Positions 14,779 to 60,022 of a stretch of 64,000 bases of DNA are shown piece by piece. Made by a program: the position numbers and the translations under genes. Position 1 is the first letter of the stretch. Every line of letters begins with the position of its first letter. Location: the NCBI RefSeq assembly GCF_030013595.1, contig NZ_CP122768.1; one strand, written 5' to 3'. Source of the stretch: Escherichia coli. GTDB taxonomy: Bacteria; Pseudomonadota; Gammaproteobacteria; Enterobacterales; Enterobacteriaceae. The notes under the pieces were generated by a model. It was not told where the DNA came from, made no database searches, and was given only the letters and a program-made list of their open reading frames with translations.

Positions 14779-15999
14779 ATGTCTATTTATAAAATCCCGC
14801 TTCCACTGAATATTCTGGAAGCTGCAAAAGAACGTATTACCTGGACACTTAACACCCTACCCCGCGTCTGCGTTTCTTTTTCGGGTGGTAAAGATTCCGG
14901 ATTAATGCTGCATCTGACCGCCGAACTTGCCCGACAAATGGGCAAAAAAATTTGTGTTTTATTTATCGACTGGGAAGCTCAGTTCTCTTGCACCATTAAC
15001 TATGTTCAGTCTCTGCGCGAGTTGTACACCGATGTCATCGAAGAGTTTTACTGGATTGCGCTCCCGCTTACAACGCAAAATTCCCTATCACAATACCAAC
15101 CCGAATGGCAGTGCTGGGAACCTGATGTCGAATGGGTACGTCAGCCCCCGCAAGATGCGATAACCGATCCTGACTTTTTCTCCTTTTACCAGCCTGGCAT
15201 GACCTTCGAACAATTTGTGCGTGAGTTTGCCGAATGGTTTTCGCAAAAACGTCCGGCGGCGATGATGATCGGCATCCGTGCGGATGAGTCCTACAACCGT
15301 TTTGTCGCCATCGCCAGTTTAAATAAACAACGTTTTGCCGATGATAAGCCCTGGACTACTGCCGCACCAGGCGGTCATAGCTGGTACATTTACCCCATCT
15401 ACGACTGGAAAGTCGCTGATATCTGGACCTGGTATGCTAGCCATCAACGCCTCTGTAACCCACTGTATAATATAATGTATCAGGCAGGCGTTCCTCTACG
15501 TCATATGCGAATTTGCGAACCTTTTGGTCCGGAACAACGGCAAGGATTATGGCTCTATCACGTTATCGAACCGGATCGCTGGGCTGCTATGTGCGCACGA
15601 GTCAGCGGGGTAAAAAGTGGCGGCATTTACGCCGGACATGACAACCATTTTTATGGTCATCGGAAAATCCTCAAGCCCGAACATTTAGACTGGCAGGAGT
15701 ATGCATTATTGCTACTCAACAGCATGCCGGAGAAAACAGCTGAGCATTATCGCAATAAAATCGCCATTTATTTGCACTGGTATCAGAAAAAAGGCATCGA
15801 GGTTCCACAAACCCAGCAAGGGGACATTGGCGCGAAAGATATCCCCTCCTGGCGGCGAATATGCAAAGTTTTACTCAATAACGATTACTGGTGTCGGGCA
15901 TTATCATTTAGCCCGACCAAAGCGAAGAACTATCAGCGTTATAACGAACGAATAAAAGGAAAACGTCAGGAATGGGGGATACTATGCAACAACGATTAA
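14779..15999 (+). CDS. ybdN: PAPS-reductase-like PP-loop ATP pyrophosphatase family protein (IbrA-like)
   Basis: 406-aa ORF with the PP-loop motif SFSGGKDS near the N-terminus. Confidence 0.8.
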   Translation: MSIYKIPLPLNILEAAKERITWTLNTLPRVCVSFSGGKDSGLMLHLTAELARQMGKKICVLFIDWEAQFSCTINYVQSLRELYTDVIEEFYWIALPLTTQNSLSQYQPEWQCWEPDVEWVRQPPQDAITDPDFFSFYQPGMTFEQFVREFAEWFSQKRPAAMMIGIRADESYNRFVAIASLNKQRFADDKPWTTAAPGGHSWYIYPIYDWKVADIWTWYASHQRLCNPLYNIMYQAGVPLRHMRICEPFGPEQRQGLWLYHVIEPDRWAAMCARVSGVKSGGIYAGHDNHFYGHRKILKPEHLDWQEYALLLLNSMPEKTAEHYRNKIAIYLHWYQKKGIEVPQTQQGDIGAKDIPSWRRICKVLLNNDYWCRALSFSPTKAKNYQRYNERIKGKRQEWGILCNND

Positions 16000-16600
16000 C
16001 GCAGGATTTAACCCAATTTCTCGCCAGCTTGCCGGAAGACGATCGCATCAAAGCGATTAATGAAATCCGCATGGCGATCCATCAGGTTAGCCCCTTTCGA
16101 GAAGAGCCAGTGGATTGCGTTCTGTGGGTTAAAACAGCCAACTTATGCCTAATGATTACAACCCAAACAACGTGGCACCACCCGAAAAAAAACTGCTGAA
16201 AAAATCCATTGAAATAGATGGTTTTACCCAACCCATTGTGGTCACGCATACGGATAAAAATGCCCTGGAAATCGTGGATGGTTTTCACCGCCATGAAATT
16301 GGTAAAGGCTCATCATCGTTAAAATTACGCTTAAAAGGTTATTTGCCGGTGACCTGTCTGGAAGGTACGCGTAATCAACGCATCGCCGCGACTATTCGTC
16401 ATAACCGCGCTCGTGGACGTCACCAAATCACTGCCATGTCAGAAATCGTCCGTGAACTCAGCCAGTTGGGATGGGACGATCATAAAATTGGCAAAGAGCT
16501 GGGAATGGACAGCGACGAAGTGCTACGCCTGAAGCAAATTAACGGCCTGCAAGAGTTGTTTGCCGACCGTCAATATTCCCGCGCCTGGACGGTTAAATAG
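15972..16600 (+). pseudogene. ybdM: ParB/sulfiredoxin-like protein (IbrB-like), apparently frameshifted
   Basis: Two overlapping ORFs in different frames (15972-16199 and 16145-16600) together span 629 nt, one short of the 630 nt expected for the ~209-aa protein; second part carries a DGFHRH ParB-like motif. Confidence 0.6.
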
Positions 16601-17761
16601 CTAAAGCTGGCGCAGGCGTTCAGCTGCTGCCAGCAACGTCGATTCCTTCTTGGCAAAACAGAGACGAATCAGTTTATGTGGGAAGGGATCGGCGCAAAAC
16701 ACCGATAGCGGAATCGCCGCTACGCCGTGCTCCTGCGTCAGCCACTGGCAAAACTCAACGTCATCCAGGGTAGATACGGCGCTGTAATCCACCAGCAAAA
16801 AGTATGTACCTTCGCACGGTAAAATCTCCAGCCGGCTTTCATTTAAGGCATTCACCAGAATATCGCGCTTCTGGCGATAAAAGTCCGGTAACGCAAGATA
16901 ATGCTCAGGTTCTGCACGTAGCATATCGGCAAGCGCCAGCTGTGCCGGGGTATTCACCGAAAAGGTCAGATACTGATGTACCTTGCGAATTTCGGCACTG
17001 ATGGGCGCTGGCGCAACGCAATAACCCACTTTCCAGCCGGTCATATGATAGGTCTTGCCAAACGATGACACCGCCACCGCCCGCTCACGCAGCTGCGGAT
17101 GCGCCTGCACGCTGGCATGGCCCTGTTGTGAAAAGTTGATGTGCTCGTAAACTTCATCGCTAATGACAAAAATCTCGTGCCCGGCAATTGCCTGCCACAA
17201 AGCGGCGAAATCAGCCTGCTGCCAGACAGTTGCACTGGGGTTATGCGGGGTGTTGAGGATCACCAGTCGGGTGCGCTCGCTTAACAATGCGGCAAATTCC
17301 TGCCAGTCCACGCGAAAATGCGGTGGTTGCAGTGCAATACGTTTCACTATTCCCCCCGAAAGCGCGATGGCGGGCGCGTAACTGTCATAGCTGGGATCAA
17401 AGCAGATCACTTCATCACCATTGCGCACCAATGCGGTAATCGCTGCATATAACGCTTCCGTCGCCCCTGCCGTTACGGTGATATCGCTATCGGCATCCGG
17501 TTGATAGCCATACAGACGTTCCGTTTTCTGAGCAATCGCCTCGCGCAAGGCCTGCACGCCAGTCATAGGCGCGTATTGGTTTGCCCCCTGGGCAACGTGG
17601 TACGCCAGCCGCTCCTGCAAATAGCGCGGACCATCAAAATCAGGAAAGCCTTGCGACAGGTTAATCGCCTGGTGTTGCTGCGCCAGCGCGCTCATCTGGG
17701 TGAAAATAGTGGTGCCAAGTTGTGGAAGTTTGCTTTGTGGAATCAGAGGGTTATTTGTCAT
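16601..17761 (-). CDS. ybdL: PLP-dependent methionine aminotransferase
   Basis: 386-aa ORF MTNNPLIPQSKLPQLGTTIF...; class I/II aminotransferase. Confidence 0.85.
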   Translation of the reverse strand: MTNNPLIPQSKLPQLGTTIFTQMSALAQQHQAINLSQGFPDFDGPRYLQERLAYHVAQGANQYAPMTGVQALREAIAQKTERLYGYQPDADSDITVTAGATEALYAAITALVRNGDEVICFDPSYDSYAPAIALSGGIVKRIALQPPHFRVDWQEFAALLSERTRLVILNTPHNPSATVWQQADFAALWQAIAGHEIFVISDEVYEHINFSQQGHASVQAHPQLRERAVAVSSFGKTYHMTGWKVGYCVAPAPISAEIRKVHQYLTFSVNTPAQLALADMLRAEPEHYLALPDFYRQKRDILVNALNESRLEILPCEGTYFLLVDYSAVSTLDDVEFCQWLTQEHGVAAIPLSVFCADPFPHKLIRLCFAKKESTLLAAAERLRQL

Positions 17762-41632: not shown

Positions 41633-41742
41633 TTGACAACATCTGGTACGATTCGCCCGCAGCCATTGCTGACCGCGGGCGAAAGTGTAAAACAGGTGCC
41701 TTACCACCCTGACCTGACAACCGGATATGCGGGGATTACTCC

Positions 41743-43080
41743 CATAAGCGCTAACTTAAGGGTTGTGGTATTACGCCTGATATGATTTAACGTGCCGATG
41801 AATTACTCTCACGATAACTGGTCAGCAATTCTGGCCCATATTGGTAAGCCCGAAGAACTGGATACTTCGGCACGTAATGCCGGGGCTCTAACCCGCCGCC
41901 GCGAAATTCGTGATGCTGCAACTCTGCTACGTCTGGGGCTGGCTTACGGCCCCGGGGGGATGTCATTACGTGAAGTCACTGCATGGGCTCAGCTCCATGA
42001 CGTTGCAACATTATCTGACGTGGCTCTCCTGAAGCGGCTGCGGAATGCCGCCGACTGGTTTGGCATACTTGCCGCACAAACACTTGCTGTACGCGCCGCA
42101 GTTACGGGTTGTACAAGCGGAAAGAGATTGCGTCTTGTCGATGGAACAGCAATCAGTGCGCCCGGGGGCGGCAGCGCTGAATGGCGACTACATATGGGAT
42201 ATGATCCTCATACCTGTCAGTTCACTGATTTTGAGCTAACCGACAGCAGAGACGCTGAACGGCTGGACCGATTTGCGCAAACGGCAGACGAGATACGCAT
42301 TGCTGACCGGGGATTCGGTTCGCGTCCCGAATGTATCCGCTCACTTGCTTTTGGAGAAGCTGATTATATCGTCCGGGTTCACTGGCGAGGATTGCGCTGG
42401 TTAACTGCAGAAGGAATGCGCTTTGACATGATGGGTTTTCTGCGCGGGCTGGATTGCGGTAAGAACGGTGAAACCACTGTAATGATAGGCAATTCAGGTA
42501 ATAAAAAAGCCGGAGCTCCCTTTCCGGCACGTCTCATTGCCGTATCACTTCCTCCCGAAAAAGCATTAATCAGTAAAACCCGACTGCTCAGCGAGAATCG
42601 TCGAAAAGGACGAGTAGTTCAGGCGGAAACGCTGGAAGCAGCGGGCCATGTGCTATTGCTAACATCATTACCGGAAGATGAATATTCAGCAGAGCAAGTG
42701 GCTGATTGTTACCGTCTGCGATGGCAAATTGAACTGGCTTTTAAGCGGCTCAAAAGTTTGCTGCACCTGGATGCTTTGCGTGCAAAGGAACCTGAACTCG
42801 CGAAAGCGTGGATATTTGCTAATCTACTCGCCGCATTTTTAATTGACGACATAATCCAGCCATCGCTGGATTTCCCCCCAGAAGTGCCGGATCCGAAAAG
42901 AAGAACTAACTCGTTGTGGAGAATAACAAAAATGGTCATCTGGAGCTTACAGGTGGCCATTCGTGGGACAGTATCCCTGACAGCCTACAAAACGCAATTG
43001 AAGAACGCGAGGCATCGTCTTAACGAGGCACCGAGGCGTCGCATTCTTCAGATGGTTCAACCCTTAAGTTAGCGCTTATG
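41743..43080 (+). mobile_element. IS186 insertion sequence (IS4 family), complete, 1338 bp
   Basis: 23-bp terminal inverted repeats cataagcgctaacttaagggttg (41743-41765) and caacccttaagttagcgcttatg (43058-43080); identical 10-bp direct repeats ggattactcc at 41733-41742 and 43081-43090. Confidence 0.9.
41960..43072 (+). CDS. insL: IS186 transposase (DDE)
   Basis: ORF 41792-43072; start placed at MSLREVTAWAQL... to give the ~370 aa I recall for InsL; start uncertain. Confidence 0.75.
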   Translation: MSLREVTAWAQLHDVATLSDVALLKRLRNAADWFGILAAQTLAVRAAVTGCTSGKRLRLVDGTAISAPGGGSAEWRLHMGYDPHTCQFTDFELTDSRDAERLDRFAQTADEIRIADRGFGSRPECIRSLAFGEADYIVRVHWRGLRWLTAEGMRFDMMGFLRGLDCGKNGETTVMIGNSGNKKAGAPFPARLIAVSLPPEKALISKTRLLSENRRKGRVVQAETLEAAGHVLLLTSLPEDEYSAEQVADCYRLRWQIELAFKRLKSLLHLDALRAKEPELAKAWIFANLLAAFLIDDIIQPSLDFPPEVPDPKRRTNSLWRITKMVIWSLQVAIRGTVSLTAYKTQLKNARHRLNEAPRRRILQMVQPLS

Positions 43081-43101
43081 GGATTACTCCCCGCACAACG
43101 G

Positions 43102-43254: not shown

Positions 43255-43680
43255 GTTTATATTGCCTCCATGCGAAGAAGGGACTACCATCCAAATTGTC
43301 TGGTTTGGAGTGGCAGCCCCAGGGTTGATAGAAATATCTCCTGGGGCTTCATCTTTCCAGACCTCAGAGTAAACCTGAAACCGGAAAGCTTCAGGCACCC
43401 GCCGTTATCTTACCCTTCCTCAGCAAAATAGCTGTTTATTTATACAGTGAGTCCTGTTTCGGACTTCTCACTCCTCATTTGATCAACTGAAGCTGAACCC
43501 GTTTTTTTCTGCATGCCTCAATCGTCAAAATTCTTCGCCACCAGCCAGCTCTGCCATAACTTGTCACATTGCAGAAGTAGCCAAACTTCTTCAGTCACAA
43601 TCAGTTCACCATCACCAAAAAAAGAAACATTCCAGAACTTCCGCATCTCGCCCAGTCGCTCCCACTTCTATACTGAATAG

Positions 43681-57784: not shown

Positions 57785-60022
57785 GTGGACTGGCTTCTTG
57801 ATGTTTTTGCTACCTGGCTCTACGGCTTAAAAGTAATCGCGATAACGTTAGCGGTCATCATGTTCATCAGCGGGCTGGACGATTTTTTTATTGATGTCGT
57901 CTACTGGGTACACCGCATTAAACGCAAGTTGAGTGTTTATCGCCGCTACCCGCGAATGAGTTACCGCGAACTGTATAAACCAGATGAAAAACCGTTAGCG
58001 ATCATGGTTCCGGCGTGGAATGAAACGGGCGTCATCGGCAATATGGCCGAGCTGGCGGCGACCACGCTCGACTATGAAAACTATCATATCTTTGTTGGCA
58101 CCTACCCCAACGACCCCGATACTCAGCGTGATGTTGATGAAGTGTGCGCTCGCTTCCCAAACGTGCATAAGGTAGTCTGCGCGCGTCCTGGCCCCACCAG
58201 CAAAGCCGACTGCCTGAACAACGTGCTGGACGCCATCACCCAGTTTGAGCGTAGCGCCAATTTCGCTTTTGCTGGTTTTATTCTGCATGACGCCGAAGAC
58301 GTAATTTCACCGATGGAATTGCGTCTGTTCAACTATCTGGTCGAGCGTAAAGATCTGATTCAGATCCCGGTATACCCATTCGAACGCGAATGGACGCACT
58401 TCACCAGCATGACTTACATTGATGAGTTTTCAGAACTGCATGGCAAAGATGTTCCGGTGCGTGAAGCCCTCGCCGGACAGGTGCCCAGCGCAGGCGTCGG
58501 TACTTGTTTCAGCCGCCGCGCCGTGACCGCACTGTGAGCTGACGGTGACGGTATTGCTTTCGACGTGCAGAGTCTTACTGAAGATTACGACATTGGTTTC
58601 CGCCTGAAAGAAAAAGGTATGACGGAAATTTTTGTCCGTTTTCCGGTGGTGGACGAAGCCAAAGAACGCGAGCAGCGTAAATTTTTACAGCACGCACGGA
58701 CGTCAAACATGATCTGCGTGCGCGAATATTTCCCCGATACCTTTTCGACTGCGGTTCGACAAAAATCTCGCTGGATCATCGGCATTGTTTTCCAGGGCTT
58801 TAAAACCCACAAATGGACCTCCAGCCTGACGCTGAACTACTTTCTCTGGCGCGACCGCAAAGGGGCAATCAGTAACTTTGTCAGCTTCCTCGCGATGCTG
58901 GTGATGATCCAGCTTTTGCTGTTACTGGCGTATGAAAGTTTGTGGCCCGATGCCTGGCATTTCCTTTCTATTTTCAGCGGCAGCGCATGGTTAATGACCC
59001 TGCTGTGGCTAAACTTTGGTTTGATGGTTAACCGCATCGTGCAGCGGGTGATTTTTGTCACTGGCTACTACGGTCTGACGCAGGGGCTGCTATCTGTCCT
59101 GCGTCTTTTCTGGGGCAACCTGATTAACTTCATGGCCAACTGGCGCGCGTTAAAACAGGTACTTCAACACGGCGATCCACGTCGCGTCGCGTGGGATAAA
59201 ACAACGCATGACTTCCCCAGCGTGACTGGCGATACCCGCTCGTTGCGCCCGTTAGGCCAAATTCTGCTGGAAAATCAGGTCATCACTGAAGAACAACTCG
59301 ATACAGCACTGCGTAATCGCGTCGAAGGTCTACGCCTGGGCGGTTCAATGCTGATGCAGGGGCTGATTAGCGCCGAACAGCTGGCACAGGCGCTGGCAGA
59401 GCAAAACGGCGTGGCGTGGGAGTCGATCGACGCCTGGCAGATCCCTTCATCACTGATTGCCGAAATGCCGGCCTCCGTGGCGCTGCATTATGCAGTACTG
59501 CCGCTGCGTCTGGAAAATGATGAGTTAATTGTCGGCAGTGAAGATGGTATTGACCCGGTTTCGCTGGCGGCCCTGACGCGTAAAGTCGGACGCAAAGTGC
59601 GTTACGTCATTGTTCTGCGGGGACAAATTGTCACGGGGTTACGCCACTGGTATGCGCGCCGACGCGGTCACGATCCGCGGGCAATGTTGTACAATGCGGT
59701 TCAGCATCAGTGGCTCACGGAACAGCAGGCCGGTGAAATCTGGCGGCAATATGTGCCGCATCAGTTCCTGTTCGCCGAAATACTGACCACGCTCGGTCAT
59801 ATTAATCGTTCAGCAATTAACGTGTTGTTATTGCGCCATGAACGTAGTTCTCTGCCGCTCGGCAAGTTTTTGGTCACCGAAGGCGTTATCAGCCAGGAAA
59901 CGTTGGATCGCGTCCTGACAATTCAACGCGAATTACAAGTTTCGATGCAATCACTATTACTCAAAGCAGGTTTAAACACAGAACAGGTTGCGCAACTGGA
60001 GTCCGAAAATGAAGGAGAATAA
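57785..60022 (+). pseudogene. nfrB: Phage N4 adsorption protein B (inner membrane glycosyltransferase-like) interrupted by an in-frame TGA
   Basis: ORFs 57785-58537 and 58565-60022 are in the same frame, separated only by TGA at 58535-58537; total 745 sense codons plus stop, matching full-length NfrB as I recall it. Confidence 0.7.

Follow-up and report, generated by a model that had tools for sequence, protein, structure and literature searches.

A single-adenine deletion in ybdM, most likely a null allele, in a clone of Escherichia coli

Introduction

The ybdM gene of Escherichia coli appears in the sequence analysed here as two pieces that lie in different reading frames. This raises the question of whether the gene has been broken by mutation, whether a base was missed when the DNA was sequenced, or whether a working protein could still be made from the divided frame. 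The original prediction, which was made from the letters of the window (the whole stretch of 64,000 nucleotides under analysis), proposed a single-base deletion that would be either a pseudogene or a sequencing error.

YbdM is a protein of uncharacterised function (PMC8764527). Its gene is part of the ybdNM operon, which is repressed by CitR (YbdO) and gives low base-mean counts in RNA-seq (20 for ybdM and 36 for ybdN) that go up in a citR mutant (PMC9068703). MG1655 gains 1-2% in fitness when ybdM is deleted, and overexpression of the gene costs about 10% of the growth rate (PMC8764527). The fitness gain on deletion (PMC8764527), taken together with the low expression and the repression by CitR (PMC9068703), fits a dispensable gene.

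The ybdM locus and its lesion

The closest relatives of this DNA are two isolates from pig faeces in the UK, HCP5S3_I2 and LCP30S3_I5, to which a 25-kb stretch is about 100% identical, the next-best genome standing at 98.9%. The neighbourhood of ybdM consists of citR, ybdN, ybdM, the convergent ybdL (16601-17761) and hcxA, and both this order and the overlaps between the genes are the same in HCP5S3_I2 and in K-12. The features on which the argument depends are as follows.

14779..15999, + strand: ybdN, a PAPS-reductase-like / DUF3440 protein of 406 aa (ORF list and RefSeq annotation)
15972..16600, + strand: ybdM pseudogene, 629 nt (alignment, RefSeq orthologues, Pfam ParB_N and AlphaFold/Foldseek)
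16131..16134, + strand: the lesion, a deletion of 1 nt behind codon K54 that turns the A5 of intact ybdM into A4
15972..16199, + strand: N-terminal remnant ORF of 75 aa, with native residues 1-54 and 21 out-of-frame residues, ending at TGA 16197-16199
16145..16600, + strand: C-terminal remnant ORF of 151 aa, which corresponds to residues 59-209 of the native protein and stops at TAG 16598-16600
16185..16192, + strand: A8 tract in ybdM, intact in the window and the main frameshift hot spot in other E. coli

The upstream operon partner ybdN is intact, overlaps the start of ybdM by 28 nt and has 0 differences from the ybdN of HCP5S3_I2. The division of ybdM itself was described well by the original prediction: both the sequence and the ORF list place the part that begins at ATG 15972 and the part that begins at ATG 16145 in different frames, and the second frame is visibly closed upstream by TAG 16088 and TAA 16130, the latter being created by the A5 to A4 deletion in the frame of the downstream ORF. 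The span 15972-16600 is indeed 629 nt, one below the reference, and the length of about 209 aa (630 nt) that had been given for the protein matches RefSeq ybdM. In its intact form the orthologue has 630 nt and 209 aa and is annotated in RefSeq as "IbrB-like domain-containing protein". One such orthologue is K-12 YbdM (b0601, YBDM_ECOLI), where the gene is intact.

When positions 15950-16620 were used as a megablast query against 5,426 complete E. coli genomes, the locus was found in 5,419 of them, with a best match that is 99.9% identical and one base longer. Alignment of the same interval to reference ybdM, the check that had been proposed at the outset, reveals one missing A in an A run. The three-way alignment with HCP5S3_I2 and K-12 has one gap, with GGGTTAAAAACAG in the references against GGGTTAAAACAG in the window (in short form, GTTAAAAACAG becomes GTTAAAACAG). 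Both HCP5S3_I2 and K-12 carry A5, and over 671 nt the change from A5 to A4 is the sole difference from HCP5S3_I2. The single-base deletion was thus predicted correctly, whereas its site was not: instead of 16140-16150, it lies at 16131-16134, about 10 nt upstream, which is still inside the broader interval of 16130-16200 first given. The DNA identity of the ybdM of the window is 99.9% to HCP5S3_I2 and 97.6% to K-12, and once the A is restored it encodes a 209-aa protein that differs from K-12 YbdM in 3 residues.

The indel is not a multiple of 3 and brings a premature stop after 75 codons, as in a frameshift pseudogene. The 75-aa ORF reads MGDTMQQRL...VLWVKTANLCLMITTQTTWHHPKKNC and the 151-aa ORF reads MPNDYNPNNVAPPEKK...DGFHRH...TVK, with the native-frame coding remnant beginning at 16133. 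Further observations concern the start of the gene and its other tracts. The annotated start is ATG 15972 (MGDTMQQ...), with a Shine-Dalgarno energy of -5.6 kcal/mol compared with -8.4 kcal/mol at the in-frame ATG 15984 (MQQRL...), which some gene callers take as the ybdM start. Like the A8 tract, the A6 tract at 16199-16204 is intact in the window.

The lesion most plausibly arose when strand slippage in replication removed one A from the A5 run. Ribosomes that begin at the normal start would then leave the frame after Lys54 and stop after 75 residues, and what is left is a 151-codon ORF that appears to have no credible ribosome-binding site, so that the function of ybdM would be lost next to an intact ybdN.

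A real allele or a missed base

Homopolymers are where a missing base calls for the question of whether it was ever missing from the cell. The reading that the A was under-called in this record and that the gene is truly intact draws on noisy long-read assemblies, GCA_013422965.1 and GCA_009217905.1 among them, in which A5 does turn into A4 by artefact. The STE... protein accessions under which the products are deposited presumably also point to a long-read culture-collection assembly, and the A4 allele is absent from the complete RefSeq genomes. These noisy assemblies served as a control, as 71-aa versions of the frameshift product come from GCA_013422965.1, GCA_009217905.1 and similar records. 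In these two, the A4 artefact is accompanied by every neighbouring gene in fragments.

The picture in the window is a different one. Over its 64 kb it differs from HCP5S3_I2 (NZ_CM149870.1) by 18 SNPs, two 1-nt homopolymer deletions and one 1.3-kb insertion, and with just these two 1-nt indels in 64 kb the assembly cannot be called indel-ridden. In the public assembly index the exact products of 75 aa and 151 aa are found in 92 and 74 blocks, respectively, on 64 and 52 contigs, and GenBank already holds both of them as STE74273.1 (75 aa) and STE74274.1 (151 aa). Two run assemblies, ERR4421131 and SRR12505102, match the window at 100% identity across 5.6-5.9 kb, the site of the deletion included, while ERR5386556 and SRR19716107 are 1 SNP away; all four of these clone-mates have full-length neighbouring genes. 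The independence of the public runs is judged here from their differing accession series and their small SNP differences. A nonsense codon in nfrB, which is another private lesion, recurs on 36 contigs, and the record therefore reproduces real clone markers.

One argument against an artefact was tried and discarded, namely that an intact A8 tract speaks against any homopolymer error: it is weak, as noisy assemblies can combine A4 with an intact A8. The valid signs of a real allele are intact neighbours and reproduction in independent runs, and both are present here, together with just two 1-nt indels in 64 kb, where an artefact would be expected to fail them. Because the same sequence occurs in independent run assemblies with intact neighbours, while the noisy assemblies show shattered ones, the A4 deletion is, as judged from assemblies, real and inherited in a clone. 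An under-call that hides an intact gene is accordingly highly unlikely, and the alternative left standing by the original prediction is settled in favour of a real pseudogene allele, given a sequence shared by many separately sequenced isolates and a clean window.

The allele is also rare. A 70-nt probe across the site, run by megablast on the 5,426-genome set, found A4 in 0 of the 4,987 matched complete RefSeq genomes, and the allele is confined mainly to one clone. We conclude with high confidence that ybdM in the window is a genuine and recently formed frameshift pseudogene, inherited in an often-sampled clone and most likely null.

Predicted fold and the effect of the break

What the deletion would do to the protein can be seen from the intact form of YbdM. 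In the repaired protein, residues 54-109 match Pfam ParB_N (PF02195) with an E-value of 2.8e-4, and residues 50-107 align to Noc (7ol9), with VLWVKNSQLMPNDYNPNN equivalent to the first strand and the "PN..QPR" box, and DGFHR equivalent to GERR. The AlphaFold model of intact YbdM (pLDDT 92.6, pTM 0.84) begins with helices at 3-19 and 22-39 and a strand at 51-54 (pLDDT about 98), after which come the remainder of the ParB-like domain and a C-terminal part made of helices. Its best Foldseek matches are Noc, ParB and KorB (E about 1e-7, probability 1.0). The description of the gene as a "ParB-like partner of ybdN" was therefore apt at the level of the fold, on the evidence of the Pfam match, the Noc alignment and Foldseek.

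The likeness, one of predicted fold, has clear bounds. Noc, ParB and KorB share the predicted fold with YbdM at an identity of merely 14-21%, the GERRxR arginine box of the ParB type has DGFHRH as its counterpart in YbdM, and YbdM, unlike all three, has an extra N-terminal helical hairpin. YbdM is paired with a PAPS-reductase-like protein, whereas ParB is paired with the ATPase ParA. Searches with NCBIfam and PADLOC led to no defence-system assignment and gave only weak, sub-threshold matches, to Noc/ParB and, for YbdN, to PAPS-reductase and DndC/BrxP-like proteins. Presumably the pair resembles its paralogues IbrA/IbrB of ECOR-9 and, at a greater distance, the pairing of DndC with DndB. Sandt, Hopper and Hill reportedly found in 2002 (J Bacteriol 184:3640) that the ECOR-9 IbrA/IbrB activate prophage eib genes.

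Among 1.84 billion representative proteins, 1,931 relatives of YbdM were found, and an alignment of 52 of them has the conserved block SPF..EPVD.V.WV....V..NDYNPN.VAPPE. The frameshift falls within this block, between the first β-strand of the ParB/Srx-like fold (residues 51-54) and the invariant motif NDYNPN, directly behind the strand. The 151-aa product consequently has neither helix 3-19 nor helix 22-39, nor strand 51-54, nor the conserved PVDxVxWV segment. Even the naturally short homologues in the alignment begin just before the PV..V..V strand, and 0 of 51 aligned homologues start at the NDYNPN motif.

Could the downstream part nevertheless function when started at ATG 16145? Such a 151-aa protein would hold the DGFHR motif and the C-terminal helices. 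Its ORF is open and is reported by gene callers, it keeps residues 59-109 of the ParB_N match at 54-109, and the truncated protein still has a weak Noc-like match. Against this stands the start itself, with a Shine-Dalgarno energy of only -3.1 kcal/mol that 30% of the ATGs on the + strand of the window equal or better, and with no promoter-like site near it. Coupling by termination and reinitiation is unlikely as well, as the stop of the 75-aa ORF lies 52 nt downstream of ATG 16145. The product would also be without the confidently modelled N-terminal elements, in a shape that none of the 51 homologues has adopted by starting at NDYNPN. A split or truncated gene that still functions is for these reasons very unlikely. 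The sequence and the model together point to a null allele as the most likely state of the frameshifted ybdM, although the 151-aa product may still be made in small amounts or keep some function.

A second way to rescue the protein would be to bypass the frameshift, either by -1 ribosomal frameshifting or by transcriptional slippage at A8, or to regard the allele as a reversible homopolymer switch caught in its OFF state. The out-of-frame stretch does cross the A8 tract at 16185-16192, where the frame would be regained with one extra A, whether from RNA polymerase or from a mutation, and both longer and shorter forms of A8 are common among E. coli. The zero frame, G GTT AAA ACA, contains no X XXY YYZ slippery heptamer, and transcriptional slippage would need a longer run than A4. 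A product restored at A8 would have 19 wrong residues in place of the invariant NDYNPN motif, and there is no record of the compensated A4+A9 allele. Almost all E. coli carry the in-frame A5, which implies that nothing has evolved around a frameshift at this site. The chance that the frameshift is bypassed or reversible in this manner is close to nil. Programmed frameshifting or recoding was rejected as a candidate on the lack of a slippery heptamer and on the absence of the shifted arrangement from all 4,987 matched complete genomes.

Recurrence of ybdM frameshifts

Clean assemblies with other ybdM backgrounds carry the A4-type product as well, namely SRR26406120, ERR4035441, SRR19547025, SRR10272417 (site form GTAAAAAC) and GCA_002519005.1. 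In the last of these (locus L006) the A deletion is found with 9 differences within ybdM, and at loci L007, L009 and L010 it comes with 12-16 differences and a K-12-like 5' half, which makes at least three further ybdM haplotypes with this deletion. Locus L008, with 12 differences, reads GGGTAAAAACAG and has lost a T from GTT, not an A, which makes it a distinct event that gives the same protein. There have thus been at least two independent events and probably four or more, with the caveat that the A-deletion haplotypes other than L008 may reflect recombinational transfer instead of recurrent mutation.

Each homopolymer of ybdM was changed by ±1 in silico and the exact product was looked up in the public assembly index, with the following counts.

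A5(160), deletion: 64 contigs
A5(160), insertion: 9 contigs
A8, deletion: at least 1000 contigs on each of the two haplotypes tested
A8, insertion: 319 and 191 contigs
A6, deletion: 53 contigs
A6, insertion: 26 contigs
A5(286), deletion: 2 contigs

Frameshift decay of ybdM is therefore common and roughly follows tract length, and the lesion in the window represents a rarer site of this well-known process. In the complete RefSeq genomes the A8 to A7 allele is present in 105 of 5,426 (68 + 37, on two haplotypes). About 2% of complete E. coli genomes already have an annotated allele of the same class as that of the window. Strain E2855 provides an example, with a 629-nt A8 to A7 ybdM that RefSeq annotates as a pseudogene (MCREHEC_RS03085, 'IbrB-like domain-containing protein, frameshifted'). 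It is the same gene, lying between intact ybdN and ybdL, and it shares with the window the loss of a single A from a homopolymer as well as an N-terminal remnant of 75 aa; unlike in the window, the lesion is in the A8 tract, 54 nt downstream of the A5 to A4 site. Across E. coli, ybdM is recurrently frameshifted while ybdN stays intact.

This pattern allows a more far-reaching reading, in which the A5, A8 and A6 tracts, all within 74 nt in the first third of ybdM, would form a mutational ON/OFF switch of the YbdN/YbdM pair, with frameshifts that are selected and possibly reversible OFF states. Independent frameshifts in many lineages and the small fitness gain on deletion (PMC8764527) fit such a switch, and two different nfrB-damaging mutations in sister strains hint at ongoing selection on accessory functions, which would fit it too. 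In the nearby A8 tract the -1 and +1 alleles are found on hundreds to more than 1000 contigs; the run mutated here went from A5 to A4, below the length of 7 or more that is typical of phase-variable tracts. We consider a switch of this kind unlikely. For the preferred reading, that of plain pseudogene formation, the loss of ybdM may be neutral or slightly beneficial, and in a dispensable and slightly costly gene with several short A tracts this kind of lesion is to be expected.

Other differences in the window

The comparison with HCP5S3_I2 brought up further differences outside ybdM. An IS4-family insertion sequence of 1,336 bp, absent from HCP5S3_I2, occupies positions 41744-43079 between entD and hokE. 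It has the terminal inverted repeats CATAAGCGCTAACTTAAGGGTTG and is flanked by a 12-bp direct duplication, GGGATTACTCCC (41732-41743 and 43080-43091), of a GGGG...CCCC target. Its transposase ORF at 41792-43072 matches the NCBIfam IS4 transposase with an E-value of 1.6e-38. The element looks like IS186, of which K-12 presumably has a copy at the same place between entD and hokE.

In nfrB (57785-60022) a SNP at 58536 changes TTA to TGA, and the resulting stop at 58535-58537 divides the gene into ORFs of 250 aa and 485 aa. Both products (STE74310.1/STE74311.1) occur on the 36 public contigs referred to above, which identifies the nonsense codon as a real clone marker. NfrB is a c-di-GMP-activated glycosyltransferase needed for the adsorption of phage N4. 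In HCP5S3_I2 the nfrB gene has a different change, with the GTG start turned into GTA (57787), and two different damaging changes in close relatives suggest selection for loss, for example for phage resistance.

The second of the 1-nt indels is an A7 run at 43617-43623 where HCP5S3_I2 has A8. It is intergenic, upstream of ybdK and beside a hokE-associated pseudogene. An 81-nt probe across this run was uninformative on which state is ancestral or an error, the region being too variable among E. coli. Of the 18 SNPs against NZ_CM149870.1, 13 are coding, with 10 non-synonymous (including the nfrB stop) and 3 synonymous changes, and transitions and transversions number 9 each. At codon 212 of ybdL the allele of the window is the common one and that of HCP5S3_I2 is derived, which implies that both branches have changed. 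The excess of amino-acid replacements would be expected if the split is very recent and purifying selection has had little effect yet.

Implications

What is described here is a known gene turned into an ordinary frameshift pseudogene. The specific allele is already deposited, and nothing about it is new in kind. The locus would be better annotated as a frameshifted ybdM pseudogene than as the two small "ParB-like nuclease" genes in the record of STE74273.1/STE74274.1, and the A4 allele can be used as a clone marker. The repeated loss of ybdM with ybdN kept is in line with published work in which ybdM proves dispensable and a slight burden, and the repeated inactivation of ybdM at short A tracts may be of help in assigning a function to YbdNM/IbrAB.
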